Shown here: positions 42,085-57,616 of the stretch, one piece after another | Layout: each line of letters begins with the position of its first letter | Numbering within the stretch: position 1 is the stretch's first letter | Origin: Desulfovibrio sp. | GTDB taxonomy: Bacteria; Desulfobacterota; Desulfovibrionia; Desulfovibrionales; Desulfovibrionaceae | Reading direction: 5' to 3' | Assembly: GCA_031553235.1 (NCBI GenBank) | Contig: JAVBLS010000002.1 | Span: forward strand, 34,375 to 98,374 | DNA length: 64,000 bases | Made by a program: the position numbers and the translations under genes | The notes under the pieces: generated by a model | The model's database searches: none | Seen by the model: only the letters and a program-made list of their open reading frames with translations | Told to the model about the DNA's origin: nothing

Positions 42085-42224
42085 AACAGACACGGCCTTC
42101 GCGGCATCCCCGCTGCGAAGGCCGCGCTCCTGCGGCTCCGCCCGGCTCCCCCGGGCGTCCGTCCGATTCTTTGCGCGCCGGGGTTTCCATGCCGCCCTTC
42201 CAAACGCGCGCACCTGAGCTGCGG

Positions 42225-42335
42225 CGGTAATCGCCTTATCGCCGCCCGCCCACCGGCCCCGCAGGCAACGCCTCTCGCCCGCGGGGCCGGGGATTATGGC
42301 TTCATAAACAATTTCAAAATGGAATTGCCCAGGGA
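42225..42335 (-). repeat. copy 3 of a ~110-nt dispersed repeat (minus orientation), in the convergent gap between ftsZ and the M16 peptidase
   Basis: Minus strand reads ctgggCAATTCCATTTTGAAATTGTTTATGAAGCCATAATCccc, followed by the GC-hairpin CCGGCCCCGC...GCGGGGCCGG (42253-42290). Shares the 38-nt core with copies at 47130 and 56408. Confidence 0.6.
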
Positions 42336-42560
42336 CCGGCTCCAAACAACGAATTTTGCTCCAAAAGCAAGGGAAACGGGCCTTTTTGCGTAGGGAGTGA
42401 ACTTTTGTGGCCCTCGACCGTAGCGCTCATTCCGCAGGGAGGCGGAACGGGCACCGGAGCTCTCCCGACGGCGTCCCGAAGGGGCGAGGCACAGGATGTC
42501 CGAGTCAAAAAGGCCCGTTTGACGCAGCAATTGGGCAAAAGACGTGTTTGGAGCCGGTCT

Positions 42561-45455
42561 CTACAGCACTCGGAGGATGGTCCAGTCACCCTTGGTGGCT
42601 TCTCGCTCAAGCGTCTGCCCGCCAAGGACGCAGGTACGCCCCTGGTCGTTGAGTTTTTCGAGCGCCTTGCCGAACTCGCGGAAGTGGTCCGGGGTGGTGG
42701 CAAAGATCTCGCGCCGCAATTGGGCCCGACCCTCTTCAGTATCGTTCTGCAGACGGCGGGCCAGGGCGGTGGAGCCTTTGGCGTCGGGCAACAGATAGGT
42801 GTCGAGTTCGCCCACGGCGCCAATAATCGCAGTGTCGAGTTCAAACTTGGACAAATTGTTGCGCTGCAACCACAAGGGTAGTTCTTCGTAAACCTTGAGG
42901 GTGGCAGCGACGTTCGGGTCGCGGTAGGAAGCCAGAAAAAAGGCCCCACTCAACCGGTCCAGACCGCAGACGCAGCCGTAGGCCCCGCCCTGCACCCGAA
43001 CTTTCTCCCAGAGATAGCCGGTGCGCAAATGCTTGAGAATCACCGCCGTGGAGCCGTGCCGGGCTGCCTGCAGGCCGGCAAGATTTACGCCCCGCCCCAC
43101 GTAGTTGACCTGGGCGGGCAGCAGCAGGGCCTCGGCAGGCGGCGCGACCACAAGCGGCACATCGGAGAGAGCGGGCGCGGCCCCGACGGGCAAGGAGGCG
43201 GCCAGGGCGCCTGCCAGAGCGCGCAGGCTCTCTTGCTGATCCGGCAGGGCGGTGACGTTCAGGGTCAGGCCGCCACGCAGGATCAAGGCGCGGCGCAGGT
43301 TTTCCAGCCGCAGGCGCACGGCCTGCGGCTCGCGCTCAAGCTCGCCGGCCAGGCGGCGCAGGAAAAAAAGTTGCTCAAGTCCATTCATATGCTCGGTCGC
43401 AGCCCCGGCCGCGCACAAGGAGGCCTTGAGCCGACCGGCCACGGCCTGGTGGCCCGAGGGGACCAGGCCGTGCTCCATGCCTGCCTTGTCTTCAAGGACC
43501 ATGCTGCGCAGGAGGCCAAGGTCGGAAAAATCCGGCTCCAGGAGCATTTCACCAAGCAGGTTGAAAAGATCCACGGTTTTGTCCGGCGCCGCCTTGCCGG
43601 AAAAGACCAGCCGGACCACGGCCCGGCCGTCGTCGGCGTGGGAAAGGGCCACGGGCGCAGCATCCAGGCCGCCGGTTTTGGCGGCCACGGCCATGTTCAG
43701 AGCAATGAAGTCGCGCTTGGCCGTGCCCATTTCGGTCATGGCCCGGCCGAGCAGGGGCAGCAGGGCCAGTTCGTCCGGGCTCAGAAAGCCGGCCTCAAAG
43801 GCCGCCTCCACATATGCGATGCCCGAGGTGGGCAGGGGGTGGAAAAGCAGGGGTGCGCCGCCGGCCTCGGCGTCGAGTGTGGGAATGTGCAGGTTTTCAG
43901 CAGGCAGATCGGCCACCTGCAGACGCGGGATGGCCGCCAGAGCCTGCGGCGAATCGGGCGTGGCCTGCAGGGCCAGCAGCTCTTTGGTGCGTCCGGCCAC
44001 GGCCGCGCGTTCGGCTGAGCCCATGGCAGCGGCCTTTTCAGCCAGTTCGGCGCGTTCCTCTTCTTCCTGGCGGGCGGCCAGATCGTTGTCCGGCTCCAGA
44101 ATGACCGTAACCCGGCCGGGGTTTTCCAGAAAAAGCCGGCGGATCAGTTGCTCAAACACCGGCTCGCCCTGGGCCAGACGGGCTTTGAGCCGGGCCAGCG
44201 GGGCCTCAAAGCGCAGGGGCAGGAAAGGATCGCCGCCATAAAGCCAGGTGGTCAGGCAGCGCAGCATTACAGAAAGGCCCACGGGGAAACGGCCGGTGTT
44301 GTTTTCGCGCAGGGAAAATTCCACGCTGTTCACAGCCGCTTCGACACTCTGGGCAGGCACCCCGCCCTCGGCCAGATCCGCCAGCCGGGCCAGGATCAAA
44401 GCTTCCACCTCAAGCACGCGGGCCGATTCAACGCCCTTGAGCCCCATGTCGAAGGCGGGCAGACGCAGTTCGGCCTCCAGTCCCTGGCCTGCCAGATCCT
44501 CGCCCAGGCCGGACTCCAACAGGGCTCGGCGCAGGGGCGAAGCGGGCAGGCCAAGCAGAATGTGCTCAAGAATACGCAACTCCAGAGCGGCTTCCATGTC
44601 CTCCAGCACATCCGGTCCGGGCCAGTTGACGGTCACCAGGGCCTTGTCGTCTTCCCCGGCGGCAAAAGGCACGCGGACCTGACGCGGGGCCGTGCCCACG
44701 GCCGGTCGGGCGATGCGCGCCGGGCGCTCGCCCCTGCCAAAGGGGGCAATGGCCTCGGCCGTGCGGCGCAGGCGCTCTTCCTCGGGGTCGTTGCCCCAGA
44801 AATAGAACAGAGCGTTGGCCGGATGGTAGCAGCGCTTGTGGAAATCGACAAAGGCCTCGTAGGTCAGGCTCGGAATGGCCTTGGGATCGCCGCCCGACTC
44901 CAGGGCATAGACCGAATCCGGGAACAGGGAGTGCAGGCTCCAGCGCCCGAGCACCGACTCGGGCGCGGAAAAGGCCCCCTTCATCTCGTTGTAGACCACG
45001 CCTTTGCGGAACAGCGGCGAGGCCTTGTCTTCGGCCTCCAGGTGATGGCCCTCCTGGGCGAAAATATCCTCGCTGATGCGCGGAAAAAACACGGCGTCCA
45101 GGTAAACGTCCATGAGGTTGTAAAAATCGGCGAGATTGGCGCTGGCCACCGGGTAACAGGTCTTGTCCGGATAAGTGAAGGCGTTCAGAAACGTCTGCAA
45201 CGAGCCCTTAAGCAGTTCCACAAAAGGCTCCCTGACCGGGTATTTGCGCGAACCGCAGAGCACCGAGTGTTCAAGAATGTGGGCCACGCCGCTCGAGTCA
45301 AAGGGGGGTGTGCAGAAGGACACGCCAAAGACCTTGTTTTCGTCGGCGTTGCAAAAAGAAAGCAGCTCCGCACCCGTGGCGTCGTGGCGCCAGAGTCGCG
45401 CCGTGGAGGAAAGTTCACTGATTTCAGTTTCGCTTATCAGGCTAAAGCCGTGCAT
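42561..45455 (-). CDS. M16-family zinc metallopeptidase (presequence-protease/insulinase-like, M16C)
   Basis: Inverted zinc-binding motif HILEHSVLCGS (HxxEH) near the N-terminus, ~960 aa with four M16 repeat domains. AGGAG SD. Confidence 0.8.
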   Translation of the reverse strand: MHGFSLISETEISELSSTARLWRHDATGAELLSFCNADENKVFGVSFCTPPFDSSGVAHILEHSVLCGSRKYPVREPFVELLKGSLQTFLNAFTYPDKTCYPVASANLADFYNLMDVYLDAVFFPRISEDIFAQEGHHLEAEDKASPLFRKGVVYNEMKGAFSAPESVLGRWSLHSLFPDSVYALESGGDPKAIPSLTYEAFVDFHKRCYHPANALFYFWGNDPEEERLRRTAEAIAPFGRGERPARIARPAVGTAPRQVRVPFAAGEDDKALVTVNWPGPDVLEDMEAALELRILEHILLGLPASPLRRALLESGLGEDLAGQGLEAELRLPAFDMGLKGVESARVLEVEALILARLADLAEGGVPAQSVEAAVNSVEFSLRENNTGRFPVGLSVMLRCLTTWLYGGDPFLPLRFEAPLARLKARLAQGEPVFEQLIRRLFLENPGRVTVILEPDNDLAARQEEEERAELAEKAAAMGSAERAAVAGRTKELLALQATPDSPQALAAIPRLQVADLPAENLHIPTLDAEAGGAPLLFHPLPTSGIAYVEAAFEAGFLSPDELALLPLLGRAMTEMGTAKRDFIALNMAVAAKTGGLDAAPVALSHADDGRAVVRLVFSGKAAPDKTVDLFNLLGEMLLEPDFSDLGLLRSMVLEDKAGMEHGLVPSGHQAVAGRLKASLCAAGAATEHMNGLEQLFFLRRLAGELEREPQAVRLRLENLRRALILRGGLTLNVTALPDQQESLRALAGALAASLPVGAAPALSDVPLVVAPPAEALLLPAQVNYVGRGVNLAGLQAARHGSTAVILKHLRTGYLWEKVRVQGGAYGCVCGLDRLSGAFFLASYRDPNVAATLKVYEELPLWLQRNNLSKFELDTAIIGAVGELDTYLLPDAKGSTALARRLQNDTEEGRAQLRREIFATTPDHFREFGKALEKLNDQGRTCVLGGQTLEREATKGDWTILRVL

Positions 45456-45552
45456 GATCCGCTCCTGGCAGAGGATTTTTGAGCGTCAAAAAGGCTGAAG
45501 CACGCATAATGCCCCAGCCCGCCGCAATGGGCAATGCTTATCAGGACGTGAT

Positions 45553-45861
45553 TCAGGTTTTGACCACGGAGTTGTCCTCACCGGCAAAACCACACGGACA
45601 GTATGCGTCGGCCGCCGGATCATTGATCCATTCACCGCTGTCGAGCAGATAGCGAAAACGGTAATCGCGCCCGGCATCCAGGTCGAGCTCACGGGTGAAC
45701 GAACCATCTTTGCGCTGCTTCATCGGGGTCTGGTTTATTTTCCATTTGTTGAAGTCGCCCACAAGATGCACTCCGCCGGCATTACGGGCTTCTTCGGGGG
45801 AAAGGCCAAAGGTGACCTTGCATACCGGCTTGGTCTTCAAAAATTTTTTCTGCAGGGGCAT
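45553..45861 (-). CDS. stand-alone CBM48 / AMPK-beta glycogen-binding-like domain protein
   Basis: CBM48/AMPK-beta glycogen-binding-like fold (VTFGLSPEEARNAGGVHLVGDFNKWKINQTPMKQRKDGSFTRELDLDAGRDYRFRYLLDSGEWINDP). Start trimmed to Met29 (AAGGA SD). Confidence 0.6.
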   Translation of the reverse strand: MPLQKKFLKTKPVCKVTFGLSPEEARNAGGVHLVGDFNKWKINQTPMKQRKDGSFTRELDLDAGRDYRFRYLLDSGEWINDPAADAYCPCGFAGEDNSVVKT

Positions 45862-46184
45862 GGGTGTTTCCTTAAACCCGCACAGCGGGGAAAAAGGGGA
45901 ACGGCCCGAATGGGAAAAACGGGAGAGGGCGCAGGGAGCCGTCACAGTCGATTATTACATAGCAGGGTTATGAGAAAAAATAAAATAAGAAATATGATAC
46001 TCAATAATAACACAATTTTCCAGATATAGATACCACTGGAACGAAACATGCCGGCTTATGTGCTACCGCAAACCGATACAGCAGGAGTATGCAGACCCTG
46101 CCGGCGCCGCACGTGCCGGCAGGCGAAGCCGACCCTGCCGACCGGCGGAAAAGAATGTTGGAGGACTATGCCGGGCGCCCAAGT

Positions 46185-46574
46185 TCAGCCGTTTACCGCA
46201 TACAGGGCTTCTTCAAAGGCCGGGCGCAGTTCCTCGGCCAGGGAGGGATCGATGCCGCACAGGCCGAAGACCGAAGCAAAAAGCAGATCCACCGGCACGG
46301 TCAGGCTCTGTCTGCCGTCGCTCATGCTGCACATATCGCCGTGGGGCCGCACGGTGTAGTTGCGGCGGGAGCGGCTTTCGCCGTCGCCGGAAACGATGGA
46401 ATAGACGTGGGCGCCGTCGTCGGTGACATACAGACGCAGGCGAGTGATGCCGGAACTGTCTTCATCGTAATAGGAGCTTTCGGAAAACAGCCTGCCCCGA
46501 AAGGACAGCTTTGCGCCGTTGTCGCCCTGCAACACCACGGATTCCGAAAAACCCGACATGGCCTTGGTGCTCAT
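46185..46574 (-). CDS. hypothetical protein (129 aa), second gene of a two-gene cassette with the excisionase-family HTH protein
   Basis: No recognisable motifs. Lies 23 bp downstream of the HTH gene on the same strand, inside an AT-rich islet. Confidence 0.4.
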   Translation of the reverse strand: MSTKAMSGFSESVVLQGDNGAKLSFRGRLFSESSYYDEDSSGITRLRLYVTDDGAHVYSIVSGDGESRSRRNYTVRPHGDMCSMSDGRQSLTVPVDLLFASVFGLCGIDPSLAEELRPAFEEALYAVNG

Positions 46575-46597
46575 CCCGTCTCCCGTGGCGGACTTCG

Positions 46598-46912
46598 TCA
46601 GTCTTCCTTGCTCTCGCTCTGCAGCAGGGAAAGCTGTACGGAGGCCGCGCCGCTTTTTTTCTTTTTGCGTCTTGCGCCGGGTTTTTCTTCCCGGGCTTCT
46701 TCTTCGGTCTCTTCGGTTTTGGAGAACAGCTCTCCGCCGCCGCCGGCCTTCCAGAAGGCCTCCAGATCCGGGCGCGAAATGCGGTAGCCCCGCCCCAACT
46801 TGGCCGCCCGCAACTCGCCGTCACGAACGGCGCGGCGCAGGGTTTCGGGGTGGCAACTCAACAAAGCCGCCGCCTCGGCCAGGGTAAACGTGGTCTTGTT
46901 GACCAGGGCCAT
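46598..46912 (-). CDS. excisionase-family helix-turn-helix DNA-binding protein (MerR-superfamily HTH_17-like) with charged low-complexity tail
   Basis: FTLAEAAALLSCHPETLRRAVRDGELRAAKLGRGYRISRPDLEAFW matches the excisionase/Xis-type DNA-binding domain. The C-terminal tail is EETEEEAREEKPGARRKKKKSG. Confidence 0.6.
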   Translation of the reverse strand: MALVNKTTFTLAEAAALLSCHPETLRRAVRDGELRAAKLGRGYRISRPDLEAFWKAGGGGELFSKTEETEEEAREEKPGARRKKKKSGAASVQLSLLQSESKED

Positions 46913-46932
46913 CGCGTCGTCCTTTTTCAGGA

Positions 46933-46962
46933 ATCATACCTTTTTCCAGCAACTATTGTCAA
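46933..46962 (-). promoter_or_regulatory. strong sigma70 promoter (TTGACA-N18-TATGAT) for the HTH/unknown cassette
   Basis: Minus strand reads gagTTGACAatagttgctggaaaaaggTATGATtcctgaaaaaggacgacgcgATG. The -35 is perfect and the -10 near-consensus, in an AT-rich stretch, with AAGGA SD downstream. Confidence 0.6.
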
Positions 46963-47129
46963 CTCCATGCAACATAAATCAATATTTATGCCTTTTAAAT
47001 CATCCAAAACAACCGGAATCTGCTGCTCTCCTATTTGCTTTCTTCATGGCTGCTTCTCGCCGCTTTCGTTCGAACACCTCGGATTATATCCATTTACAAC
47101 CGAACGGAAGCGCTCAAAGCGGTCGAGAG

Positions 47130-47252
47130 CTGGAGCAATTTCATTTTGAAATTGCCTATGAAACCATATTGCCGACAAACTTCCGAACGAGTCCGCAAGT
47201 GGACCGCCGCTTGCGCGGTCGTCAGGGCTGATAAACATTTTCAATCTCATCA
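47130..47252 (+). repeat. copy 1 of the ~110-nt dispersed repeat, in the 5' leader of nfeD
   Basis: ctggaGCAATTTCATTTTGAAATTGCCTATGAAACCATATTGCCG, a perfect 9-bp hairpin GCAATTTCA/TGAAATTGC, followed by the GC hairpin CCGCAAG-tggaccgccg-CTTGCGG and then ...CTCATC. Confidence 0.6.
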
Positions 47253-47373
47253 ACCCATTCCGGCCCGAAGCTGCTCGATGAGAGCTCAGCTTTCAGGTTG
47301 CCTTCAACGGGAATTTAGGCTTATATTTCGGTGTCGACCAAAGACAGGAACACCGTTTTCTCCCGGAGGACGC

Positions 47374-47955
47374 ATGGAACTTGCAGCTTTGTACAAATGG
47401 ACCGCCATGATCAGCGGCGCGGCCTTTTTGCTGCAGTTGCTCGCCACCCTGTTCGGGTTTGATCATCTTTTCGGCGATCACGACACCTCGGGAGCGGACG
47501 GCGCCTTCACCGACGCCGGCGACGGTCATGGCTTCGGTTTCGGCCACACCTTTTTGTCCTTCCTGTCGGTGCGCAACGTGGTCTGCTTTCTGCTGGCCTT
47601 TTCCGTCACCGGCTATTACGGCCTGACTTCCTACAACCTGGACGGCCTGGCCTCTTTGCTCGGGGTGGTGGCCGGCGTGGCTCTGGTCTTTTTCAACATT
47701 TATATGATGCGCGCCCTTTCGGGCCTGAAACGCGACACCACGGTGTACGGGTCCGAACTTCCCGGCCGACACGCCACGGTGGTCTTCCCCGTGCTGCCCA
47801 GGCGCTCCGGCCAAGGCAAGGTCAACGTCACCGTGGACGGCCGGACCATGACCCTCTTCGCCCTGACCGACGAGCCCGAAGAACTGCCCCGCAACGCCGG
47901 GGTGGTTGTCGAACAGGTGCTTGAAGGCTGGGTGGTGCTGGTGCGCAAGCCCTAG
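47374..47955 (+). CDS. NfeD-family membrane protein (YuaF-like; C-terminal OB-fold)
   Basis: N-terminal TM helices and a C-terminal NfeD short-form beta-barrel (GKVNVTVDGRTMTLFALTDEPEELPRNAGVVVEQVLEGWVVLVRK). Lies upstream of the flotillin, the classical pairing. Confidence 0.7.
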   Translation: MELAALYKWTAMISGAAFLLQLLATLFGFDHLFGDHDTSGADGAFTDAGDGHGFGFGHTFLSFLSVRNVVCFLLAFSVTGYYGLTSYNLDGLASLLGVVAGVALVFFNIYMMRALSGLKRDTTVYGSELPGRHATVVFPVLPRRSGQGKVNVTVDGRTMTLFALTDEPEELPRNAGVVVEQVLEGWVVLVRKP

Positions 47956-47965
47956 GCCGGAGTTC

Positions 47966-48496
47966 ATGTTCCGCCTGCTGTCGCTGCTCCTTGTAGTCGG
48001 CCTGTTCGCCGTTGTGGCCTGTTTCCGGGCCGTCCGGTCGAATCGGGCTCTGGTATTTTTCAGTCGGGACGAGAGCCCTGTGGTGCGGCGGGTGGTGTTC
48101 GCGGGTCTGGTCTTTGTCCCGCCTTGGCGTCGGGTGAAAACGCTCTATCTCGGGGCGGTCGGCCTTGAGCTTGGGGCCGAAGACCTGGGCCGGTCTGCGC
48201 CGTTGCACCGACCCCTGCGTTTTCTGGTGGGCGCGGACGTCCAAGGCCCCGGCTTGGAACGCGCGGCCGAGCGACTGGCCGGCTTGGAGGCTCCGGCTCT
48301 GGTCGATATTGCCCGCGCCGTGCTGCGCGGACGCTTACAGGGAGAGGCTCCCGGCCGGGCCTGGGAAGCCCGGCGTGAACAGATTCTGCGCGAAGACCTG
48401 CGTGTCGCCCTGGCGGCCAAGGGCTTGAAACTTTTCAGCTGCAACCTGGACGGCCTGTTCGCCGACCCAACCTCGGGCGCGGCCGGCCGGCCGTAA
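47966..48496 (+). CDS. short membrane-anchored protein homologous to the N-terminal SPFH segment of the downstream flotillin (truncated paralog)
   Basis: One TM helix, then ALVFFSRDES...LVFVPPWRRVKTLYLGAVGLEL...LRFLVGADV aligns with flotillin IIVISGMFFGSDRAS...TVFVWPLIQTYAYLSLTPMTIEI...SRFTIGV. The remainder is Arg/Ala-rich low complexity. Confidence 0.45.
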   Translation: MFRLLSLLLVVGLFAVVACFRAVRSNRALVFFSRDESPVVRRVVFAGLVFVPPWRRVKTLYLGAVGLELGAEDLGRSAPLHRPLRFLVGADVQGPGLERAAERLAGLEAPALVDIARAVLRGRLQGEAPGRAWEARREQILREDLRVALAAKGLKLFSCNLDGLFADPTSGAAGRP

Positions 48497-48546
48497 CCAC
48501 AACCCCGGCGCGGCCCGGCCGCGACCCTTTCTCGGGAGCCCCCCTC

Positions 48547-50079
48547 ATGGATCAACTTTTCGACTTTTTCGGCATGGGCAGCCTGCTCGGCATCATCGTC
48601 ATTCTGGCCGGCCTGGGCGTTTTGCTGACGATCATGAAGCGCTACCATGTGGTGCCTTCGGACAAAATCATCGTCATCTCGGGCATGTTCTTCGGCAGCG
48701 ACCGGGCCAGCGCCAAGTGCCTGCACGGCGGCACGGTCTTTGTCTGGCCCCTGATCCAAACGTACGCCTACTTGAGCCTGACTCCCATGACCATTGAAAT
48801 TCCGCTGCGCAACGCCCTGTCGCGCCAAAATATCCGGGTCAACGTGCCTTCGCGCTTCACCATCGGCGTATCAACCGACCCCGAAGGCATGCAGAACGCC
48901 GCCGTGCGCCTGCTTTCCCTGAAAACAACGGAAGTGCAGGACAACGCCACTGACATCATCCTCGGCCAGTTGCGGGCCACCATCGCCACCATGGATATCG
49001 AGGAAATCAACGCCGACCGCGAAAAATTCGAGCGCAAGATCATGGAAAACGTGGAGTCCGAGCTGCGCAAGATCGGCCTGCAGTTGATCAACGTGAACAT
49101 CACCGACATCTCCGACGATTCCGGCTACATTGAGGCTCTTGGCAAAAAGAGCGCCAGCGAGGCCGTGAACCAGGCCAAGATCGACGTGGCCGAGCAACAG
49201 CGCCGTGGCGCGGCCGGTGAAGCCGTGGCCCAGAAGGAGCAACGCATCTCCGTGGCCGACTCCAACGCCAAAGCCGTCGAGGGCGAGAACCAGGCCCTGA
49301 TGGCCATGGCCCGCTCCAACGCGGACAGAAACGAGGTCGAGGCCGAGTCCAAGCGCCGGGCCGAAGCCGCCCAACTGGTCCAGAACGCCATGGCCAGCCG
49401 CGAAGGCTACGACGCCGAGCGCCAGGCCGAAGAAGCCCGCCAGGCGCGCGAAAAAGCCACCCGCGAGGCCAACGAACTGGTGCCCGCCCGGGTGGCCAAA
49501 GAGCGCGTGCTGGTGGAGGCTGAAGCTGAAGCCGGCCGCATGCAGCGCATCGCCGAGGGCGAAGCCCAGCGCATCCGCATTCTGGCCGAGGGCGAGGCCG
49601 CGCAGATCCAGACGCTTTCCGAAGCCGAAGCCGTGCGCCTGAAGAACATGGGCGCCGGCGAAGGTGAAAACACCCGCCTGAAACTTGAGGGCGAGGCCCT
49701 GGGCGTGCGGGCCATTCTGGAAAGCCGGGCCGAGGGTTTCCGCAAACTGGTGGAGGCCGCCGGGCACGACTCGCAGGCCGCGGCCATGCTTTTGCTTGCG
49801 GAAAAAGCTCCGGAGCTTTACAATATCCAGGCCGAAGCCATGAAGAACGTGCGCGTGGACAAGCTTACCGTAGTCGGCGGCCTGGGTGGCGCGGGCGGCG
49901 CGGAGAACCCCCTGGGGCGGGTGGCCTCAGACTATCTTTCTCTGCTGCCCTCCCTGCACGAAGGGGCCAAGACCTTCGGGCTGGACCTGCCCGCCATGAT
50001 GGGCAAGGCCGGCGCGGCCAAGGCCGAAACCTCCCGGCCCGAGGCATCCAGGCCCGAAACGTCCGGAAAAGACGCTTAA
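48547..50079 (+). CDS. flotillin (SPFH/band-7 family, FloT/YuaG-like)
   Basis: N-terminal TM plus SPFH domain, and a long EA-rich coiled-coil (Flotillin domain) with repeated AEAE motifs. GGGAG SD. Confidence 0.85.
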   Translation: MDQLFDFFGMGSLLGIIVILAGLGVLLTIMKRYHVVPSDKIIVISGMFFGSDRASAKCLHGGTVFVWPLIQTYAYLSLTPMTIEIPLRNALSRQNIRVNVPSRFTIGVSTDPEGMQNAAVRLLSLKTTEVQDNATDIILGQLRATIATMDIEEINADREKFERKIMENVESELRKIGLQLINVNITDISDDSGYIEALGKKSASEAVNQAKIDVAEQQRRGAAGEAVAQKEQRISVADSNAKAVEGENQALMAMARSNADRNEVEAESKRRAEAAQLVQNAMASREGYDAERQAEEARQAREKATREANELVPARVAKERVLVEAEAEAGRMQRIAEGEAQRIRILAEGEAAQIQTLSEAEAVRLKNMGAGEGENTRLKLEGEALGVRAILESRAEGFRKLVEAAGHDSQAAAMLLLAEKAPELYNIQAEAMKNVRVDKLTVVGGLGGAGGAENPLGRVASDYLSLLPSLHEGAKTFGLDLPAMMGKAGAAKAETSRPEASRPETSGKDA

Positions 50080-50093
50080 CCGGAGTAGCCGAT

Positions 50094-50915
50094 TTGATTG
50101 ACGGTACGTGCAAAAGGGCGGGAATCACCGCCCTTTTTTTTGCCCTGCTCCTCTGTGCGGCCCTTTTCAGCTGCGGCAACGATGATGCCGAAGACCCCGC
50201 CGCCGCCCTGGCCCCGGCCGAGCACGCCCTGGGCAAAGGCGACATTGCCGAGGCCGAGGCACTGTACGAGCGCTTTTTGCGTACCCACCCGGAAGGTCCG
50301 CTACGCCGCAAAGCCTGGGATCGCCTGCTGGAGATCACCCTGAACATCCGCCAGGACAAGGCCACTGCCCGGGAATACCTGGAAGTGATGCGCCTGGAGT
50401 ATGCCGAGCAGCCTGAAGACCTGCGCGCTGTGGAGCTGGCCCTGGCCGCCTTGTGCAACGCGCAGCGCGACGACGCCTGTGCCGTGCCCTTATGGGAAAA
50501 GTCGGCCGCCGACCCGTCCACCCCGGCCGAAGTCAAGGCCCCGGTCTACCGGGATCTGGCCGCCGCCTATATGCGCCGGCTGGAGTTCACCCCGGCCGTG
50601 GACGCCCTGCAGGCCTGCCTGGAACTGGAGGTGGGCGTGCCGGCCAAGGGCGAGTGCCTGTACGACATGGCCGAAATCAATATGTTGACCGAAGATCCGG
50701 CCGCGGCCGAGCGCAACCTGCGCACCCTGCTCAGCTGGTCGGCGGATCTTTCCGAAGATCTCCGGGTGCGTGCCGTGTTTCTTTTGGCCGACGTGGTCGA
50801 GCAGCGCGGCAGCAAGGCCGAGGCATTAAGCCTGTTTGAAGGCATCCGGGACAAATACCCCAATGCCAAAGTCGTGGAAATGCGCATCACCTCATTGAAA
50901 AACCAGAAGAAGTAA
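50094..50915 (+). CDS. tetratricopeptide-repeat lipoprotein
   Basis: Signal peptide with lipobox (LFSCGN) followed by TPR-like helical repeats. TTG start with GGAG SD 8 nt upstream. Confidence 0.55.
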   Translation: MIDGTCKRAGITALFFALLLCAALFSCGNDDAEDPAAALAPAEHALGKGDIAEAEALYERFLRTHPEGPLRRKAWDRLLEITLNIRQDKATAREYLEVMRLEYAEQPEDLRAVELALAALCNAQRDDACAVPLWEKSAADPSTPAEVKAPVYRDLAAAYMRRLEFTPAVDALQACLELEVGVPAKGECLYDMAEINMLTEDPAAAERNLRTLLSWSADLSEDLRVRAVFLLADVVEQRGSKAEALSLFEGIRDKYPNAKVVEMRITSLKNQKK

Positions 50916-50935
50916 TCGACGGAACGAGAAAGGCC

Positions 50936-52183
50936 ATGGCGAAACACAGCACCATTTCCCAGTTGGATTATTCCTTTGAGCTGCGCCATGCCCTGGTGGG
51001 CGCGCAAATGTTTTTCGTGGCCTTCGGCGCCCTGGTCCTGGTGCCCCTGCTCACCGGCCTGAACTCCAGCGTGGCCATGTTCACGGCCGGGGTCGGCACC
51101 CTGGCCTACCAGGCCATCACCAGGGGCAAGGTGCCCATCTTTCTGGCCTCGTCCTTTGCCTTTATCGCGCCCATCCAGTATGGCATCCAGACTTGGGGCC
51201 TGCCCGGCACCCTCTGCGGGGTCACCGCCGCCGGGGCTTTGTATTTTGCCTTAAGTCTCCTGGTCCGCTACCGGGGCGTGGGCGCGGTCACCCGCCTGCT
51301 GCCACCTATCGTCACCGGCCCGGTGATCATGGTCATCGGCCTGTCCCTGGCGCCCGTGGCCGTGCAGATGGCCGCCGGCACCAACCCCGCCGCCGGCATC
51401 CACGAGGTCAACCAGCCCCACCTGCTCGTGGCCCTGATCTCCCTGGTCGCCACCCTGGCCGCCTCACTCCTGGGCCGGGGCTTTATCCGGCTGGTGCCGA
51501 TCATCTGCGGCATCGCGGCCGGTTATCTGGCCTCCCTGTACTTCGGCCTGGTGGATTTCGGGCCCCTGCACGCGGCCCCCTGGTTTGCCGTGCCCAAGTT
51601 CACCTTTCCTGCCTGGAACGCCGAGGCGGTGCTCTTCATGCTGCCCGTGGCCATTGCCCCGGCCATCGAGCACGTGGGCAACGTAGTGGCCATCGGTTCA
51701 ATTACCGGCCGTGACTACCTCAAGGACCCCGGCCTGCAGCGCACCTTTTTGGGCGACGCCGTCGCGACCTCGCTGGCTTCTTTTGTCGGCGGACCGCCCA
51801 ACACCACCTACGCCGAGGTTTCCGGCGGCGTGGCCCTGACCAGGGCCTTCAACCCCGGGGTCATGACCTGGGCCGCCATCTCGGCCATCTGCCTGGCCTT
51901 TGTCGGCAAGCTCGGGGCCTTTCTCAGCACCATCCCGGCCCCGGTCATGGGCGGGATCATGGTCCTGCTCTTCGGCACCATCGCCGTGGTGGGCATGAAC
52001 AGCCTAGTCCGGGCAGGCGACGACCTGATGAAGCCGCGCAACCTGGCGATCATCGCCGTGGTCCTGGTCTTTGGCCTGGGCGGCATGGAACTGAGCGCCG
52101 GGGTATTCACAGCCAAAGGCATCGGCCTGGCCGGCCTCACCGGCCTGGTGCTGAACCTGATCCTCCCCCGCGGCCGCGAGTAG
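50936..52183 (+). CDS. uracil/xanthine permease (NCS2 family, UraA/PyrP-like)
   Basis: NCS2 signature regions (VLVPLLTGL, FLASSFAFIAP, LPPIVTGPVIMVIGLSL). 12-14 TM helices, ~415 aa. Confidence 0.8.
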   Translation: MAKHSTISQLDYSFELRHALVGAQMFFVAFGALVLVPLLTGLNSSVAMFTAGVGTLAYQAITRGKVPIFLASSFAFIAPIQYGIQTWGLPGTLCGVTAAGALYFALSLLVRYRGVGAVTRLLPPIVTGPVIMVIGLSLAPVAVQMAAGTNPAAGIHEVNQPHLLVALISLVATLAASLLGRGFIRLVPIICGIAAGYLASLYFGLVDFGPLHAAPWFAVPKFTFPAWNAEAVLFMLPVAIAPAIEHVGNVVAIGSITGRDYLKDPGLQRTFLGDAVATSLASFVGGPPNTTYAEVSGGVALTRAFNPGVMTWAAISAICLAFVGKLGAFLSTIPAPVMGGIMVLLFGTIAVVGMNSLVRAGDDLMKPRNLAIIAVVLVFGLGGMELSAGVFTAKGIGLAGLTGLVLNLILPRGRE

Positions 52184-52239
52184 GGGTGCCACCACTGAAT
52201 TTACAAATAAATCTAAGTAGTCCAAGCGCAAAATGCCTA

Positions 52240-52270
52240 AAAACAAGCGGGTGGAAGTCTTTCCACCCGC
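52240..52270. terminator. bidirectional rho-independent terminator between convergent uracil permease and AlkP-paralog genes
   Basis: AAGCGGGTGGAAA-gtc-TTTCCACCCGCTT, a 13-bp perfect stem, with an A-rich 5' flank. Confidence 0.7.
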
Positions 52271-52293
52271 TTCGCACGTATTTGAAACAGGGA

Positions 52294-52866
52294 TCATGCG
52301 CAGTCGTGCTTATCCCAGGGTTCGCGATTATCGCGGGCCAGGGCGCTTTCCATGCGGACCAGGGCTTCTTTGAGCTTGCCGATCTCGTCCATTTTCAGGT
52401 TGGGGCTTTTCAGCACTTGGTAGAGCACCGCGCCGGTGCACTCGGTGGTGATCGGAAAGTCCGCGATGTAGGCCAGGGTGGGCACGATGTCGCGGGCCTG
52501 GGCGGCCCGGGCCACTTCACCGGCCTTGGCGTCCACGCCTAGGCCGTAGAACACGACCGCGCCCTTGGCGACCACGGCCAGGGTGCAGCGGCGGTCGGTG
52601 CCGTCGAGCACGGCGGCCAGGGCGGTATCCAACTCGGCCGTGCCGGCCGTGCCCAGGTCGACGACCATCAGGGCCGTGCCCGTTGCCACTTCGTCGGCCA
52701 CACCGGCCGGAGCAACGGAAATGGCGCCTTCGGCGGCCTCAAGGGAGTTGCCGGCCGTGTAGTTTTTTAGAACCACGCCTTTTTTCAGGAGTTTGCCGAG
52801 GCCGTCGCCGCAAGCGGCGATTTCGGCTTCGGGAGCCAGGACGATGATCGCTTTCTTTTCTGCCAT
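52294..52866 (-). CDS. hypothetical protein; mini-paralog of the C-terminal region of the adjacent alkaline-phosphatase-family enzyme
   Basis: C-terminus ARDIVPTLAYIADFPITTECTGAVLYQVLKSPNL aligns with the large protein's C-terminus LADIVPTLCYATGNPIPDDAEGAVMYQILENPNL. Lacks the N-terminal catalytic Thr and metal ligands. AAGGA SD. Confidence 0.45.
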   Translation of the reverse strand: MAEKKAIIVLAPEAEIAACGDGLGKLLKKGVVLKNYTAGNSLEAAEGAISVAPAGVADEVATGTALMVVDLGTAGTAELDTALAAVLDGTDRRCTLAVVAKGAVVFYGLGVDAKAGEVARAAQARDIVPTLAYIADFPITTECTGAVLYQVLKSPNLKMDEIGKLKEALVRMESALARDNREPWDKHDCA

Positions 52867-52877
52867 GATGAATTCCT

Positions 52878-54764
52878 TTATTTCACTAAATTGGGATTTT
52901 CGAGGATCTGATACATAACCGCACCTTCGGCGTCGTCCGGAATGGGGTTGCCGGTGGCGTAGCACAGGGTGGGCACGATGTCGGCCAGCCAGCGCGGACG
53001 CGTGTAGGTGAAGCCTTTTTTCACGTTCGGGCCCCTGAAGAGCAGAATGTTCTTCAGGCTGCCGCAGCCGGACTCGCCGGTGGGGAAGCCGTAGCCGTGC
53101 TCGGCCATATATTCGGGCTTCAGGGCGTAGACCACATCGCCGGCCTGAGCGCCGCCCATGCCGAAGACCTGGGCGTCTTCCTTGCGCACGGCCAGCAGCA
53201 CCGGGCGCTCGCCGGTCTCGGGGTGCTTGTAGTCCATCAGGGCGTCGATGATCTGGCCGCGGACCTTTTCATAGTCGGCGGCCTCGACGATGCCGTTGGG
53301 ATATTTGTCCTTCAGGTTCACGTACACGAACATGTAGCGCTGGGGAATGGCCACGGACTTGCTCGGGTCAAGCACGTAGTTGAAGCCCTCAGACTCTTCG
53401 TAGATTTCCCAATAGTTTTCGCTCTTCTTGGGCTCGTAGCTGCATAGGCCCTTGGACTTCAGGGCCTCGGCCGTGTTCAGGATCGGGCCGATTGGCGTGG
53501 CCCCGTGGTCGGAACACAGGCAGACCAAGGTGTCGTCGCCGAAAATCTCCATCATCTTGCCGAGCATGCGGTCTTCGATCTGGTAGATCTTGCGCTCCAT
53601 GTCGTATGCTTTTTTGCGGACGTTCTCGTCCTTGCTGTCCATGTCGCCCAGCCAGCCGTGGTAGAACCAGTCGATGGGGTGGGAGTGCATATAGAAGAGA
53701 TCCCAGTCGGCGTTGGCCTTGATCACGCTTGTCGCCACATTGATCAGCCAGTCGGAATGGTACTGGGCCACTTCGACCACGGTGTCCATGTCGAGCACGC
53801 CGTGGATGAAGCCCACCAGACCGATGTCGTTGCAGATCACGTCCTTGGAGAAATCGATGACTTGGGCGGCTTCCGGCGGCCAGACAAAGCCGGTGTGACC
53901 GGAAATGCCGGTGACATAAAGCTTGAAGTCCTCGGCATCATCGGAAAGTTCCATCAGCTTGCAGCGGAAGGTGCCCTTTTCCATGCGGCCGTCTTCCTTG
54001 ACCTTGAACGTATGCTGTACCGGGCCGCTCCACTCGCCTTTCTTGATGGTAAAGAAGGCCTTGGAGTAATCCTTCTCCGGGCAGACGGCAAAAGAATCGA
54101 AGCCGTCGTCGCCGCTCTCCCAGCACAGGCCGTACCAGGTCTGGTTTTCCACCGGGGTCATGGATTCTTTGAAGGCCATTTCCACGGTGAACTCCAGAGG
54201 TTCATCGCACTCAGGCAGGTTTTTCCAGCCCTTGGCGTTGTCGAAACGGGCCTGTACGCCCAGGGGGAAGAAATCCGAGGAAATGACACTTTCGGAAGCC
54301 AGAAATTCTCGGTGGGCATTACCCTCTTCCATCCAGCGGGTTTCGGCCGGGGAGATGCCCTCACCCATGACCATGACGCCGTTCTTCATTTTGCTCGGCC
54401 AGGCCATGGGATAGTTGACCACAAGACACTTCTTGCCTTCCTTGTCCCAGCGGTCCCAGATGGTCTGGGCGGTGAGAATCGAAGAACCGAAGGCCTGCAC
54501 GGTATTCTTGTGTTCCAGGCTGCGCCCTTCCACGTAGTAGTAATAGTCTTCCACGCCGTGGGTGCGCGGGTAGGCGCCGGTGCAGATGGTCGCCCAGGAG
54601 GGCGGCGTGACCGTGGGCAGGTTGTAGCCCTCGGTCATGTAGCTGCCGCTCTCTTTGAACTTCTTGAAGTTCGGCAGCGCGCCCTCGGCAATCAGGGCTT
54701 CCAGGCGTTTGGGGATGGCGCAGTCAAACCCGAGCAGGGCGGCGCGCTTGGCTTTAGCGGTCAT
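52878..54764 (-). CDS. alkaline-phosphatase-superfamily enzyme, nucleotide pyrophosphatase/phosphodiesterase (NPP)-like
   Basis: NPP-type nucleophile motif GYNLPTVTPPSWATICTG and the metal-binding DHG (CSDHGA) and HSHP motifs. Start trimmed to MTAKAKRAALLGFDC (GGAGA SD 7 nt upstream). Confidence 0.7.
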   Translation of the reverse strand: MTAKAKRAALLGFDCAIPKRLEALIAEGALPNFKKFKESGSYMTEGYNLPTVTPPSWATICTGAYPRTHGVEDYYYYVEGRSLEHKNTVQAFGSSILTAQTIWDRWDKEGKKCLVVNYPMAWPSKMKNGVMVMGEGISPAETRWMEEGNAHREFLASESVISSDFFPLGVQARFDNAKGWKNLPECDEPLEFTVEMAFKESMTPVENQTWYGLCWESGDDGFDSFAVCPEKDYSKAFFTIKKGEWSGPVQHTFKVKEDGRMEKGTFRCKLMELSDDAEDFKLYVTGISGHTGFVWPPEAAQVIDFSKDVICNDIGLVGFIHGVLDMDTVVEVAQYHSDWLINVATSVIKANADWDLFYMHSHPIDWFYHGWLGDMDSKDENVRKKAYDMERKIYQIEDRMLGKMMEIFGDDTLVCLCSDHGATPIGPILNTAEALKSKGLCSYEPKKSENYWEIYEESEGFNYVLDPSKSVAIPQRYMFVYVNLKDKYPNGIVEAADYEKVRGQIIDALMDYKHPETGERPVLLAVRKEDAQVFGMGGAQAGDVVYALKPEYMAEHGYGFPTGESGCGSLKNILLFRGPNVKKGFTYTRPRWLADIVPTLCYATGNPIPDDAEGAVMYQILENPNLVK

Positions 54765-55261
54765 GATTTGTCTCCAGAGTAAGGTGTATGTGCCAATGCG
54801 ATCGATGGGCCGGCAATCTGCCGCTTTCAAAAAACGGGCCATTGTGAATTTTTGCGCACAACGCGGATTTGCCGCTTTTTCCAAGACATTTTCGTCACCA
54901 AAAAAGCGACATATATGACGTTTTTTGGCATAAAAAATAAAAAAACTGTGATTTAGTGCCAATAACAATATGGCGATAGATATGTCGCAAATTACGATCA
55001 TTCCGACATAACTCGGAGTCGCCTCGTTCCATTCGGGCGTCGTGCCGGCAGGGCTCTCCAAGGAAGCTGCATTGGCCCGGAAAGCGGCAACAGGCCAATA
55101 GAAATATATCTTCCGGCTTGCCGACTGTGACAAACAGCACAATAGGTGCACAGCGCCCGCGCCGATGCATATCGGCCGCGCCCCCCGGCAGACGACGGCC
55201 ACCGGAACACTCTGCGGCCCGCGCGGGCGTGCCGCGGTGAACCGGAAGCACTCACTGACCA

Positions 55262-56020
55262 TTGAGTTTTATAGCTCAAAATGCTTTCTCGGATTCAGAA
55301 AAAGATCTTCGTCCCATGTGGGAAGCGGTTGTTCCTACCGCCCTGGTCATCGCAGTTCTTTGTGTGGTCATCTGCATGCAGCCCGACCAAAGCCGGAAGA
55401 TGCCGGGCGACACCTTTGCCTTCATTCCCAAGAACTTGGGCGCAGGCTGTCCGTGGTTTAACCTCTTCCTGACCGGACTGGATCTGCTTTTCATTTTCAG
55501 CCGCCACGGCAATGTGAAATTCGGAGCAAAAGACGAAGCCCCGGCTTTCAGCAACGGCAAATGGATTTCCATGATGTTTTGCGCGGGCGTGGCCGGCGCG
55601 GCGATGTTCTGATCCATCGCAGACCCCCTGTACGACCTGAACGGTCCACCCATGAACGTCACGCCGCTGTCGCCGGCAGCCTTCCACTACGCGACCTCAT
55701 ACGTGCTCTTTCACTGGGACGCCTCTACCTGGGTCTGGTATGTCATCTGCGCTCTGCCCATCTGCTACATGTACTATAAAAAGCGCGGCACCCCTGCTCT
55801 GCGCCTTTCGGCGGCCGGCAAAAAAGGTATCGGCAAGTGCGCCGGCGGCCCTGTGAGCACGGCCATCGGCATCTTTTTCTGCATCGGCCTGATTGCCGGC
55901 AACACGGCGATCATGGGCATCTCCATTCCCATTATGGCCGACGCCTGCATGATTCTGGTAATCATCCCGCTGCTCCTCTCGCTGATAAAATGCTTCGTAC
56001 GGAAGACCCCGTGGCCCTAA
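55262..56020 (+). pseudogene. BCCT-family (betaine/carnitine/choline) transporter remnant: in-frame TGA at a conserved Trp codon, and truncated after ~TM4
   Basis: 55262..55612 encodes the BCCT signature GNVKFGAKDEAPAFSNGKWISMMFCAGVAGAAMF, then TGA (55610-55612). The same frame continues as SIADPLYDLNGPP...YVLFHWDASTWVWYV (BCCT motif FxHWG) and stops at 56020. Intact BCCT proteins are at least ~480 aa. Confidence 0.6.
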
Positions 56021-56407
56021 AGCACCAGGAGATCCGGAAGGCCATGGAGTCTCGGGATACCCTGCGGCCTCAAAAGCCGCGGGAGGCCCGGAAATCCCAG
56101 ACCCTTCCGGGCATAGACGCGGCCTAAGACTCTGTCGCGGCGTTCCGGAAAAACCGCCAACCCGCATGTCGCTCAAGGCCCGGAGGACACATGCCCTCCG
56201 GGTTTCGCTTTTTGTCGCGGCCGCGACGATTTTGTCGCATTGCGGTCCACAGGAAAAGCAGCAGCGCGCCCCGGCAGGAATCGGCACCCGGGCCTACCCG
56301 CGAGCCGGCCGCACACCCGCAAAAGGAAACCCCACCGGAAGGCTGCCTGCCGTCCCGGTGGGGTGTTCGTCATCACGGCGCAGGACTTACCCGGGCCCGA
56401 CTGTTCC

Positions 56408-56529
56408 TAGCGCAATTTTACTTTGAAATTGTCTATGAAGCCATATTGCCGTCGGGCTCCTGAACGCGCCCGCAAGCTGCCGGCCGCTTGCGCGTCCGTC
56501 AGAGCAGATGAACATCGAAAATGCTCATC
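56408..56529 (+). repeat. copy 2 of the ~110-nt dispersed repeat
   Basis: ctagcGCAATTTTACTTTGAAATTGTCTATGAAGCCATATTGCCG, then the GC hairpin CCGCAAG-ctgccggccg-CTTGCGcG, then GATGAACATcgaaaATGcTCATC. About 85% identical to copy 1 over ~105 nt. Confidence 0.6.
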
Positions 56530-56539
56530 TGCTCCAGAC

Positions 56540-57616
56540 CTACTTCCAGTCCGGAACGGGCTGCTGCACCAGCTTCAGAAACTTGTCTGTGTTGATGTGG
56601 GCGTCCTTGAACTTCTGCACTTCTTTCGGGCTGAAACGGCCGACGGAGGCAAAGAAGTCGGCCACGGCGAACTGCCACTTGTCGGCCTGAGATTCGCCCT
56701 TGGAGCCGTCAAGCAGGGCCATGGACTCTTCATAGGACCAGCGTGGGTGAATGATGATATCCTGCTTCGCTTCTTCGGCGGTCATCTTGATGCCGGCGAA
56801 GTCGTTCATATACTGCTGGTATTCCTTGATGATGCGATCGCTCGGGCCCTCTTCGGCCAGCATCTTGGAAGTACGGAAGAACACTCGCAGGAACTTGGCC
56901 ACCAGTTCGGGGTTTTTGTCGCACCAATCTTTATCGCCCACAATGGAGGACACAGTCACGCAGTCCATGTCGTTCATGTCGCCGGCCACGGGCCAACCGC
57001 GGGAATCGGCGGCAAAAGTGAAGGGGGACCACAAGCAGGCGGCGTCGCCGATGCCCTTTTCAAAGGCCGGAATGGCCGAGGGCTGCTCCATGTTCACCAG
57101 GGTCACGTCTTCGGGCTTCAGGCCGAGAATTTCCAACCACTTGCCGACCATGTAGTGCACCGTGGTCTGTGAGGTGTAAAGAATCTTCATGCCTTTGACG
57201 GTTTCCGGGCTGCCCAGCACATTGGGGTACTTGGGGTTGTAGCCTTTGATCTTGGCAGCCGGGCTGTCCGGGCGCAGATAGAGCGCGTGCACTTTGCCTT
57301 CGCTGATAATCGGAGCCACGGCGTAAATTTTGTAGCGGATGCCGCCCACCAGCTGGCCGCCCACTCCGGTGGAACCCAGCACCCATTCTTTGGCGGGCAG
57401 AGCTTCCATCTGGGCCGGGCCGCTGCTGAAGAGGATCATCTGAATGTCCAGGCCCTCTTCTTTGTCCCAACCCATTTTTTTGGCGTACCAGATGTTGAAG
57501 CCCGGAGATTCGTCCATCCAGCAGGTGGGAATTTTGACCAGTTCCGCCGCCGTAGCGCCGGAAGCCAGGGCCAGGGCCAGGACGGCGGCCAGGGCCAGAG
57601 AGAAAAGCTTTTTCAT
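56540..57616 (-). CDS. ABC transporter periplasmic substrate-binding protein (NMT1/THI5-like, NitT/TauT family)
   Basis: Signal peptide MKKLFSLALAAVLALALASGATAA and an SsuA/THI5-like fold. AGGAG SD. Last gene of a five-gene ABC operon. Confidence 0.8.
   Translation of the reverse strand: MKKLFSLALAAVLALALASGATAAELVKIPTCWMDESPGFNIWYAKKMGWDKEEGLDIQMILFSSGPAQMEALPAKEWVLGSTGVGGQLVGGIRYKIYAVAPIISEGKVHALYLRPDSPAAKIKGYNPKYPNVLGSPETVKGMKILYTSQTTVHYMVGKWLEILGLKPEDVTLVNMEQPSAIPAFEKGIGDAACLWSPFTFAADSRGWPVAGDMNDMDCVTVSSIVGDKDWCDKNPELVAKFLRVFFRTSKMLAEEGPSDRIIKEYQQYMNDFAGIKMTAEEAKQDIIIHPRWSYEESMALLDGSKGESQADKWQFAVADFFASVGRFSPKEVQKFKDAHINTDKFLKLVQQPVPDWK

Follow-up and report, generated by a model that had tools for sequence, protein, structure and literature searches.

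Bacterial miniature inverted-repeat transposable elements (MITEs) flanked by TA include the Correia repeat-enclosed elements (CREE) of Neisseria, RUP of Streptococcus pneumoniae, which is linked to the insertion sequence (IS) IS630-Spn1, and Nezha in cyanobacteria. We describe here a family of non-coding, palindromic repeats of 125-200 nt found in a 64-kb stretch of Desulfovibrio sp. DNA (contig JAVBLS010000002.1; the whole stretch is termed the window) and in related loci and genomes, to which the L0xx labels below refer. With a little better than even confidence, the repeats are interpreted as relics of a lineage-specific MITE that was moved in trans and inserted at TA. The Desulfovibrio repeats resemble CREE, RUP and Nezha in being non-coding, about 100-160 nt in size and dispersed in many copies, in having terminal inverted repeats of ~20-26 nt that start with TA and TA at both flanks, and in lying between genes near gene ends, being capable of forming hairpins when co-transcribed and varying in presence and absence between related genomes. 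Unlike these families, to which they are not known to be similar in sequence, the Desulfovibrio repeats have no partner IS in the loci examined, each of their ends is palindromic, their terminal TAG/CTA is repeatedly the stop codon of a neighbour, and they occur in a lineage of Desulfovibrionaceae for which metagenome assemblies are the only source.

The second group of described systems to be compared is that of the repetitive extragenic palindromes (REPs), defined by a 5' GT(A/G)G tetranucleotide and an adjacent palindrome (PMC3686654). Inverted doublets of REPs are known as REPINs (REP doublets forming hairpins; PMC3686654, PMC3116915). The present family resembles REPs, REPINs and bacterial interspersed mosaic elements (BIMEs) in its short conserved 5' motif, in which A and G alternate at one position (T(A/G)G here) and to which a palindrome of variable sequence is directly attached, in its inverted doublets with singlets as decay products, in its strictly extragenic placement, often after stop codons or between cistrons, and in the vertical persistence of single insertions. 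It differs from them in that the tetranucleotide lacks a conserved initial G, one junction suggests TA duplication, the long spacer of 80-150 nt has its own conserved hairpin, some copies hold an extra 70-nt module, and no REP-associated tyrosine transposase (RAYT) gene was seen in the fetched loci. With the small-RNA and cis-regulatory families of Rfam the repeats have in common a multi-hairpin fold of significantly low free energy. This is in contrast to their lack of strand preference, promoter and terminator, and of any match to the curated models.

That the elements are small and non-coding, have inverted ends and swapped interiors, include a recent burst of copies bounded by TA...TA, leave filled and empty sites in related genomes and occur also as fragments of one end only points to a non-autonomous mobile repeat, for which the MITE interpretation is preferred. 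Among the properties by which a MITE is recognized, small non-coding size, terminal inverted repeats and dispersed copies with insertion polymorphism were observed. The initial annotation of the window had offered two candidates, a REP/MITE-like miniature repeat and a structured small RNA. The former is upheld by the inverted ends, the exact TA boundaries of the recent copies, the subfamilies, the filled and empty sites and the intergenic location; a small-RNA gene is not demonstrated, and the element is an ordinary kind of bacterial repeat. This kind, MITE/REP-like repeats, is already well known, with Correia elements and REPINs being nearest in style. The family itself appears to be undescribed so far, with no match in the literature or the databases; a literature search gave nothing relevant on the terminal sequences or on MITEs or REPINs of Desulfovibrio.

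Anatomy of the repeat family

Five pieces of the family are present in the window, comprising two full main-type elements, one full element of a sister subfamily and two fragments. They are named c1 to c5 and listed here with their parts (^ marks a junction).

47131-47264, + strand: c1, full short-form element of 134 nt, main subfamily, 3' end decayed; between a divergent HTH_17 gene (46598-46912, - strand) and a 193-aa gene (47374-47955, + strand)
47131-47158, + strand: 5' terminal unit H1 of c1, TG^GAGCAATTTCA-TTT-TGAAATTGCC; the 5' inverted repeat, itself palindromic
After H1 and reaching ~47174, + strand: subterminal conserved block of c1, TATGAAACCATATTGCCG
47195-47215, + strand: internal GC hairpin H2 of c1, CGCAAGTGG-ACCG-CCGCTTGCG
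47225-47264, + strand: 3' terminal unit H3 of c1, decayed, GGGCTGATAAACATTTTCAATCTCATCAACCC.., homologous by alignment to GAGCAGATGAACAT..ATGCTCATCTGCTCCAGACC of c2
56408-56542, + strand: c2, full short-form element of 135 nt, TA^GCGCAATTTT...CTGCTCCAGACC^TA
56408-56435, + strand: 5' terminal unit H1 of c2, TA^GCGCAATTTTA-CTT-TGAAATTGTCTA
56471-56492, + strand: internal GC hairpin H2 of c2, CGCAAGC-TGCCGGCC-GCTTGCG
56502-56542, + strand: 3' terminal unit H3 of c2, GAGCAGATGAaCAT-CGAAA-ATGcTCATCTGCTC, then CAGACC^TA
56540-56542: last bases of c2 (CTA), which are the TAG stop of the convergent NMT1-like binding-protein gene (56540-57616, - strand)
42293-42331, - strand: c3, 39-nt fragment with the 5' unit only, TG^GGCAATTCCATTTTGAAATTGTTTATGAAGCCATAAT; between convergent ftsZ (40837-42084, + strand) and a PreP-like peptidase gene (42561-45455, - strand)
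63069-63195, + strand: c4, 127 nt, sister (L025-type) subfamily, TA^GAGCAATTCACGACAGAAATG...CATTTCAAGAGCAAAATATTC^TA
39400-39447, - strand: c5, 3' fragment with the right arm of H2 and a short H3, ..GGACGTCCGCTTGCACGGCCGTCGGAGCAAATGAGCGGCTGCTC

The 5' end of the family is T(A/G)^GAGCAATTTCAyTTTGAAA. The 3' end as read is TTTCAAAGnnAnnTGCTCTA, and its reverse complement is TA^GAGCAnaTnAaCTTTGA(A/G)A; the two ends of an element are imperfect inverted repeats of ~20 nt. Reverse complements of individual 3' ends are TAGAGCAGATTAACTTTGAGA (L025), TAGAGCATTTCAACTTTGAAA (L004) and cTGGAGCAAATCAGCTTTGAAA (L015a), and the decayed 3' repeat of c1 is accompanied by a 5' end that departs from the consensus of the family ends at one position. 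Members of the main subfamily are c1, c2, L003, L004, L005a and L015a; both of their ends are in addition palindromic in themselves, forming H1 on the 5' side and H3 (GAGCA..TGCTC) on the 3' side. The conserved block CTATGAAACCATATTGCCGAC comes after H1, and the GC hairpin H2 (CCGCAAGC..GCTTGCG) occupies the middle. Across 15 units of H1, 87% of the cells are paired and four pairs show double changes. The sequence GCTCCAGACC is common to H3 of c2 and to copy L015a, the latter being at an unrelated locus.

Common ends and differing interiors characterize the main type, the L025 type, the L028 hybrid and the element of L027. In L025 the sister subfamily is represented by four copies of 128-129 nt that are 94-96% identical and have the exact boundaries flank^TAGAGCAAT...CTGCTCTA^flank, the flanks being unrelated to one another, and by a 51-nt 3' fragment (L025 8149-8199); the 3' unit of this type has no palindrome adjoining TAG. 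L027 contains a variant of 125 nt, and the L028 hybrid is composed of main-type and L025-type parts. Assignment of c4 to the sister subfamily is based on blastn (77% over 71 nt) and on its end-to-end alignment with the L025 type. The dinucleotide next to the GAGCA ends is TA at 15 of 26 ends and TG at six more. TA is present at both ends of c2, c4, L004, L027e1 and the four L025 copies, where it could equally belong to the inverted repeat.

The loop of H2 holds insertions of 70-80 nt in other copies, which are termed the long form. Three of these (L005b 968-1159, L011b 9503-9696 and L011c 11495-11691) have a conserved ~70-nt module in the H2 loop, with the sequence GCAAACAGGAATGCAAAGGTCGAyATrTCGGCGGA...GAATAyTCCCTGC and the short inverted ends CAGGAAT and ATTCCCTG; the insertion in the H2 loop of L003 differs from it. 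The module includes a small stem with changes from C-G to T-A and G-T, as judged by eye in the three copies. It may have been inserted as a nested element, or the long form may be ancestral. We also note that GAGCAT(T)TTC occurs four times upstream of gcvH in L015 (3465-3720), two of the occurrences being near-identical palindromes that each follow CGCCGAGCATTTTC. This array looks like a variant or tandem of the repeat end units abutting the ribosome-binding site of gcvH.

The three related copies of the initial annotation are real and well above chance, the 34-nt pattern of the core having been found 0 times in 100 shuffles. The element c1 matches nine other family members. Their sites were placed correctly and their limits were not; in particular, c3 is confined to 42293-42331. 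The quoted core, given as 38 nt, is actually 40 nt long, and the count of three copies missed c4 and c5. An identity of ~85% had been claimed for c1 and c2; the measured value is about 80% (79% over 109 ungapped nt between 47130-47238 and 56407-56515, and 79.8% over 104 nt by blastn). In inverted orientation c3 is 85% identical to c1 over 39 nt and 80% identical to c2 over 46 nt, and c5 matches L015a with 88% identity over 33 nt (blastn, E=1e-6). A core profile searched with nhmmer gave no match in the window beyond c1, c2 and c3. The window copies are old, as indicated by the 80% identity of c1 and c2, the decayed 3' end of c1 and the fragmentary state of c3 and c5, and they are probably no longer mobile.

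The 9-bp hairpin described earlier (GCAATTTCA with TGAAATTGC) is indeed perfect in c1, and the GC hairpin common to c1 and c2 (CGCAAG../..CTTGCG) is present. The stem-preserving variation reported for the third copy is not real, because its GC stem CCGGCCCCGC..GCGGGGCCGG is orthologous to sequence downstream of ftsZ. This hairpin beside c3 (about 42250-42292) aligns at ~75-80% with the ftsZ-downstream sequence of L011 and L012, which have no core there, and the homology ends exactly at the edge of the core. The argument from substitutions in H1 that had been read as G-U pairs, and hence as pointing to a structure in RNA, does not stand. Most family members have the terminal T of TGAAATTGT, which fits an extended palindrome made up entirely of Watson-Crick pairs, TAGA-g-CAATTTCA...TGAAATTG-TCTA; A-C mismatches also occur.

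Distribution and placement of the copies

A species-representative genome collection, which does not include the source genome, and a metagenome collection were scanned by exact pattern. The core was recovered from the genome collection at three true loci (L003, L004 and L005), all in two uncultured Desulfovibrio metagenome-assembled genomes; in the plasmid collection neither the main nor the L025-type subfamily was matched. The only matches to the core in the metagenome collection were due to chance and lay in contigs of low GC content. Searches with three proteins, FtsZ, flotillin and the NMT1-like binding protein, show that the source belongs to an isolated Desulfovibrionaceae lineage, the nearest relatives of which come from sewage and other metagenomes. 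Related loci were fetched through these proteins and searched with nhmmer, blastn and fuzzy end patterns, which provided a mutually consistent census of 21 copies in ~178 kb of protein-anchored loci and an extrapolated density of ~1 copy per 8-13 kb. The copies sought in related genomes do exist, at other sites in uncultured Desulfovibrio relatives, and L015 has three copies of its own. The element is present in relatives down to 72% identity of the binding protein; a relative at 67% had no copy in the 21 kb looked at.

Comparison of orthologous sites reveals that copies are gained and lost between related genomes. At the site of c2, the window and L015 are syntenic over 11 kb with 94% identical binding proteins, and c2 is absent from L015. 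The binding-protein gene ends in L015 with GGGAAG ATG TAA (also given as ...GGGAAGATGTAA) and no element, and in the window with TGGAAG^TAG GTCTGGAGCAG..., so that the CTA end of c2 supplies the stop codon. The copy c4 is likewise absent from the orthologous spacer of L015, which is 61 nt long against flanks of 26+37 nt in the window. Conversely, L011 and L012 have a copy that starts at the stop codon of ftsZ, GCCAAC^TAG^AGCAATTTC, and represents one orthologous insertion inherited vertically, and the ftsZ gene of the window ends with GCCAAT TAA and no element. L015c is missing from the syntenic spacer of the window, which is 350 nt shorter. At the site of c1, the only relative that covers it (L032, 76% flotillin identity) is without the element, in a spacer too diverged to align.

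The clearest junction is provided by an element between two cistrons of a conserved ABC-transporter operon (L027 8845-8969), which reads gactac^TA^GAGCA...GCTC^TA^AGGAGATGCTCgtg. The spacers at this site are short and empty in L026, L015, L025, L028 and the window, with the empty junctions TGA^TA^AGGAG in L026 and GTAAGGAG in L015. The right-hand TA in L027 runs on into TAAGGAG, as do the empty junctions of L026 and L015. Among the sites compared, this junction is the one most suggestive of insertion at TA accompanied by a duplication.

All 21 copies in the protein-anchored loci are intergenic, and intergenic DNA makes up ~15% of L015. Six times independently, the terminal TAG/CTA coincides with the in-frame stop codon of a neighbouring gene or adjoins it:

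L011 and L012: ftsZ (one orthologous insertion)
L004: CTP-transferase-like gene, with 307 upstream codons in frame
Window, c2: NMT1-like binding-protein gene
L027: BPD_transp_1 gene and ABC_tran gene
Window, c5: abuts the TGA of ftsQ

The fragment c5 lies in the ftsQ-ftsA spacer directly after the ftsQ stop (TGA, 39399-39401), and this spacer measures 118 nt in the window and 73 nt in L012. Two copies end at ribosome-binding sites, TA^AGGAG or TA^GGAG. Others are located just upstream of start codons, as are L015b (gcvH), L011c (dapA) and c4, the 3' end of which is 37 nt upstream of the start of an OsmC-like gene (63233; Pfam). The orientation of the copies relative to the genes is mixed, and the neighbouring genes (ftsZ, ftsQ, ABC transporter, corrinoid genes, proC, dapA, flagellin and OsmC-like) have no common function. 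The element c1 is positioned 110 nt upstream of the 193-aa gene, which precedes the flotillin gene and has a homologue in L032. The initial annotation had placed this copy in the 5' leader of nfeD-flotillin; the identity of ORF 47906-48496 as nfeD is without Pfam support.

Proposed movement and competing readings

For a MITE, a transposase encoded elsewhere in the genome would bind the ends and move the element in trans, with insertion at a TA dinucleotide that would thereby be duplicated. In a genome of 62% G+C, the harmless TA sites would be concentrated in stop codons (TAA/TAG), TAAGGAG ribosome-binding sites and AT-rich spacers. As the element begins with TA-G and ends with C-TA, its arrival within a stop codon or immediately ahead of one would regenerate TAG; such insertions would be tolerated and would accumulate at gene ends. 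Tolerance of TA sites in AT-rich spacers would also account for the position of c1 at the edge of an AT-rich divergent promoter region. A co-transcribed copy may have a role as RNA, and any effect on neighbouring genes, for example through a hairpin at the 3' end of a transcript, is speculative.

Several observations weigh against the MITE interpretation. Neither the window nor ~200 kb of related loci contained a transposase gene or an autonomous element with these ends, an IS with such ends was likewise absent from the plasmid collection, and none of the genes called in the fetched loci belongs to a transposase Pfam family. The TA is not strictly separable from the inverted repeat, as no filled/empty pair is close enough for alignment at single-base level; the empty counterpart of c2 in L015 has 22 extra unalignable bases, so that a base-exact target duplication is not readable there. 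Conservation in the main subfamily is asymmetric, the 5' 45 nt being much better kept than the 3' side. Ends that are palindromic and show compensatory changes, such as the four doubly changed pairs of H1, are typical of REPs recognized as hairpins and not of ordinary DDE-type MITEs. Furthermore, the ftsZ-stop copy has been kept in two substantially diverged genomes, as would be expected of long-lived REPIN-like repeats more than of IS derivatives, which are short-lived.

These points lead to the main rival, a REPIN/BIME-like origin, in which each end would be a REP unit recognized as a hairpin in single-stranded DNA, two such units in inverted orientation would form a doublet, and replication by a single-copy RAYT (HUH/Y1) enzyme, in place of a DDE transposase, would leave no target duplication. 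We regard this as possible but unlikely. Both ends do have T(A/G)G and, adjoining it, a 9-11 bp palindrome that is maintained by compensatory changes, the TAG and TGG variants both occurring. Single units and fragments exist (c3, c5 and L025 8149-8199), and the extragenic placement after stop codons or between cistrons, the extrapolated abundance and the vertical inheritance of the ftsZ-stop insertion by L011 and L012 are all in line with such repeats. The base preceding the motif is not the conserved G of GT(A/G)G, however, being C in seven cases, T in six, G in four and A in one before TAG, and always C before TGG. The spacer between units is shorter than 80-150 nt in typical REPINs, and here it spans that length and has a hairpin of its own. 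The missing palindrome next to TAG in the L025-type 3' unit, the resemblance of the L027 junction to a TA duplication and the absence of a RAYT gene from the gene tables of the fetched loci argue in the same direction. A more elaborate version, which we consider improbable, combines a vertically inherited REPIN-like system of Desulfovibrionaceae, in which an as yet unseen HUH/RAYT-type enzyme would read T(A/G)G and the hairpin in place of the canonical GT(A/G)G, with co-option of the ends by the host as stop-proximal 3'-end or intercistronic RNA structures. If it were true, the co-opted hairpin ends would tune mRNA stability or translation in operons such as the dcw cluster (ftsQ, ftsZ) and that of the ABC transporter.

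The copies might instead be independently transcribed genes for structured small RNAs of ~110-135 nt, with H1 and TATGAAACCATA as the functional part and H2 and H3 as stems or terminators, a reading that was the main idea of the initial annotation and that we judge very improbable. They do fold significantly better than shuffled sequence (z -3 to -6), their stems are kept despite sequence change, the 5' 45 nt is highly conserved across genomes, and the small internal stem of the three long-form copies shows, by eye, the C-G to T-A and G-T changes given above. The folding is about equal on both strands, however, with the reverse strand as good or better in six of eight main-type copies (c1, c2 and six from relatives) and more stable in both c1 and c2; the stems are therefore taken to be DNA palindromes, with no sign of strand-specific selection at the RNA level. 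No sigma-70-like site lies inside c1, c2 or c3, the single match near c1 (47298-47327) being downstream of it and before the 193-aa gene. By eye and by scanner, the conserved 45 nt has no acceptable match to sigma-54, sigma-28 or sigma-70 promoters, and there is no intrinsic terminator inside the three copies, with no T-run after any hairpin on either strand. Rfam gave 0 matches at gathering score in the window, and over the elements of L003, L004, L005, L011 and L012 the sole overlap at E <= 1 was mir-5897 (E=0.17, on H3 of L005a), a generic hairpin; an already described Rfam family is thus not indicated. Mixed orientation, overlap with stop codons, location between cistrons of one operon and fragments of one end only are also out of keeping with a small-RNA gene, as is the nature of the supposed compensatory stem of the third copy, which is unrelated ancestral sequence. 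Sister subfamilies keep the ends and replace the whole interior, the reverse of what is expected from a functional RNA core. Finally, the palindrome GAGCAATTTCA-N3-TGAAATTGCTC could be read as an operator for a dimeric DNA-binding protein, that is, as a regulon or nucleoid-protein site. Its perfect or nearly perfect symmetry with symmetric compensatory changes and the copies just upstream of the gcvH, dapA and OsmC-like start codons would suit this proposal, to which we give hardly any credence in view of the functionally unrelated neighbours, the frequent location of copies at the 3' ends of genes that converge, a unit of repetition that extends 125-200 nt beyond the palindrome and includes a second inverted end, and the sites that are not conserved at orthologous positions between relatives.

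Three further candidates were rejected. An intrinsic terminator in 3' untranslated regions is ruled out by the missing T-runs on both strands. A 5' leader or attenuator of one gene family is ruled out by the differing flanking genes and orientations, in agreement with the initial annotation, which had argued against an operon-specific attenuator on these grounds. A small coding gene on either strand is ruled out because the reading frames are not conserved; translation of both strands meets frame-shifting 1-nt indels and early stops (MKP* in c3 and L003).

Recognition of the repeats as relics of a mobile element keeps them from being annotated in Desulfovibrio genomes as riboswitch-like leaders or small RNAs. 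It also explains local oddities of the window, namely the repeat-supplied stop codon of the binding-protein gene, the insertion ahead of the OsmC-like gene and the extra DNA between ftsQ and ftsA. The family is a marker of a Desulfovibrio lineage that is associated with sewage, uncultured and poorly sampled, and for which the pattern of presence and absence could be used in strain typing and in dating divergence. It offers a clean example of how, where the genome is rich in GC, stop codons and ribosome-binding sites become the landing places of a TA-seeking element with TAG/CTA ends, and its ends unite MITE-like and REP-like features. None of these points would surprise specialists.

Neighbouring features of the loci

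Further features were observed in the window and in the related loci:

45800-47100 of the window: AT-rich region (GC 42-47%) with the HTH_17 (excisionase-type) gene 46598-46912 (- strand) and several open reading frames (ORFs) without Pfam families
47906-48496 of the window: ORF called nfeD in the initial annotation, no Pfam match at E <= 0.001
55262-56040 of the window: remnant of a BCCT-family transporter gene, beside c2
Window 42215-42292, L011 2299-2371 and L012 4233-4305: GC-rich hairpin region downstream of ftsZ, conserved in the three genomes
L005 6806-7025 (- strand): cobalamin riboswitch, 83.5 bits, in a corrinoid-transport locus with two repeat copies
L011 11943-12032 (- strand): tRNA-Sec gene, 250 nt upstream of repeat copy L011c
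57900-58037/60438-60575 and 58858-59039/59754-59935 of the window: direct repeats, 71-75% identity

The AT-rich region may be what is left of a small island, or no more than a divergent promoter region, and the annotation of the ORF upstream of flotillin needs checking. In the hairpin region downstream of ftsZ the stem varies in sequence with the pairing kept (CCGGCCCCGC with GCGGGGCCGG in the window, CCGTTCCC.. with ..GGGAACGG in L012); it may be a terminator of the dcw cluster or another conserved 3' structure, and is not part of the repeat. L015 has an intact BCCT gene of 546 aa between the NMT1-like binding-protein and phosphodiesterase genes, of which the remnant in the window keeps the two ends (equivalent to L015 11416-11520 and 12315-12985) after an internal deletion of ~800 bp. 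The direct repeats are unrelated to the repeat family; they fall within the duplicated BPD_transp_1 and ABC_tran genes of the transporter operon, of which they are coding segments that are paralogous to each other.

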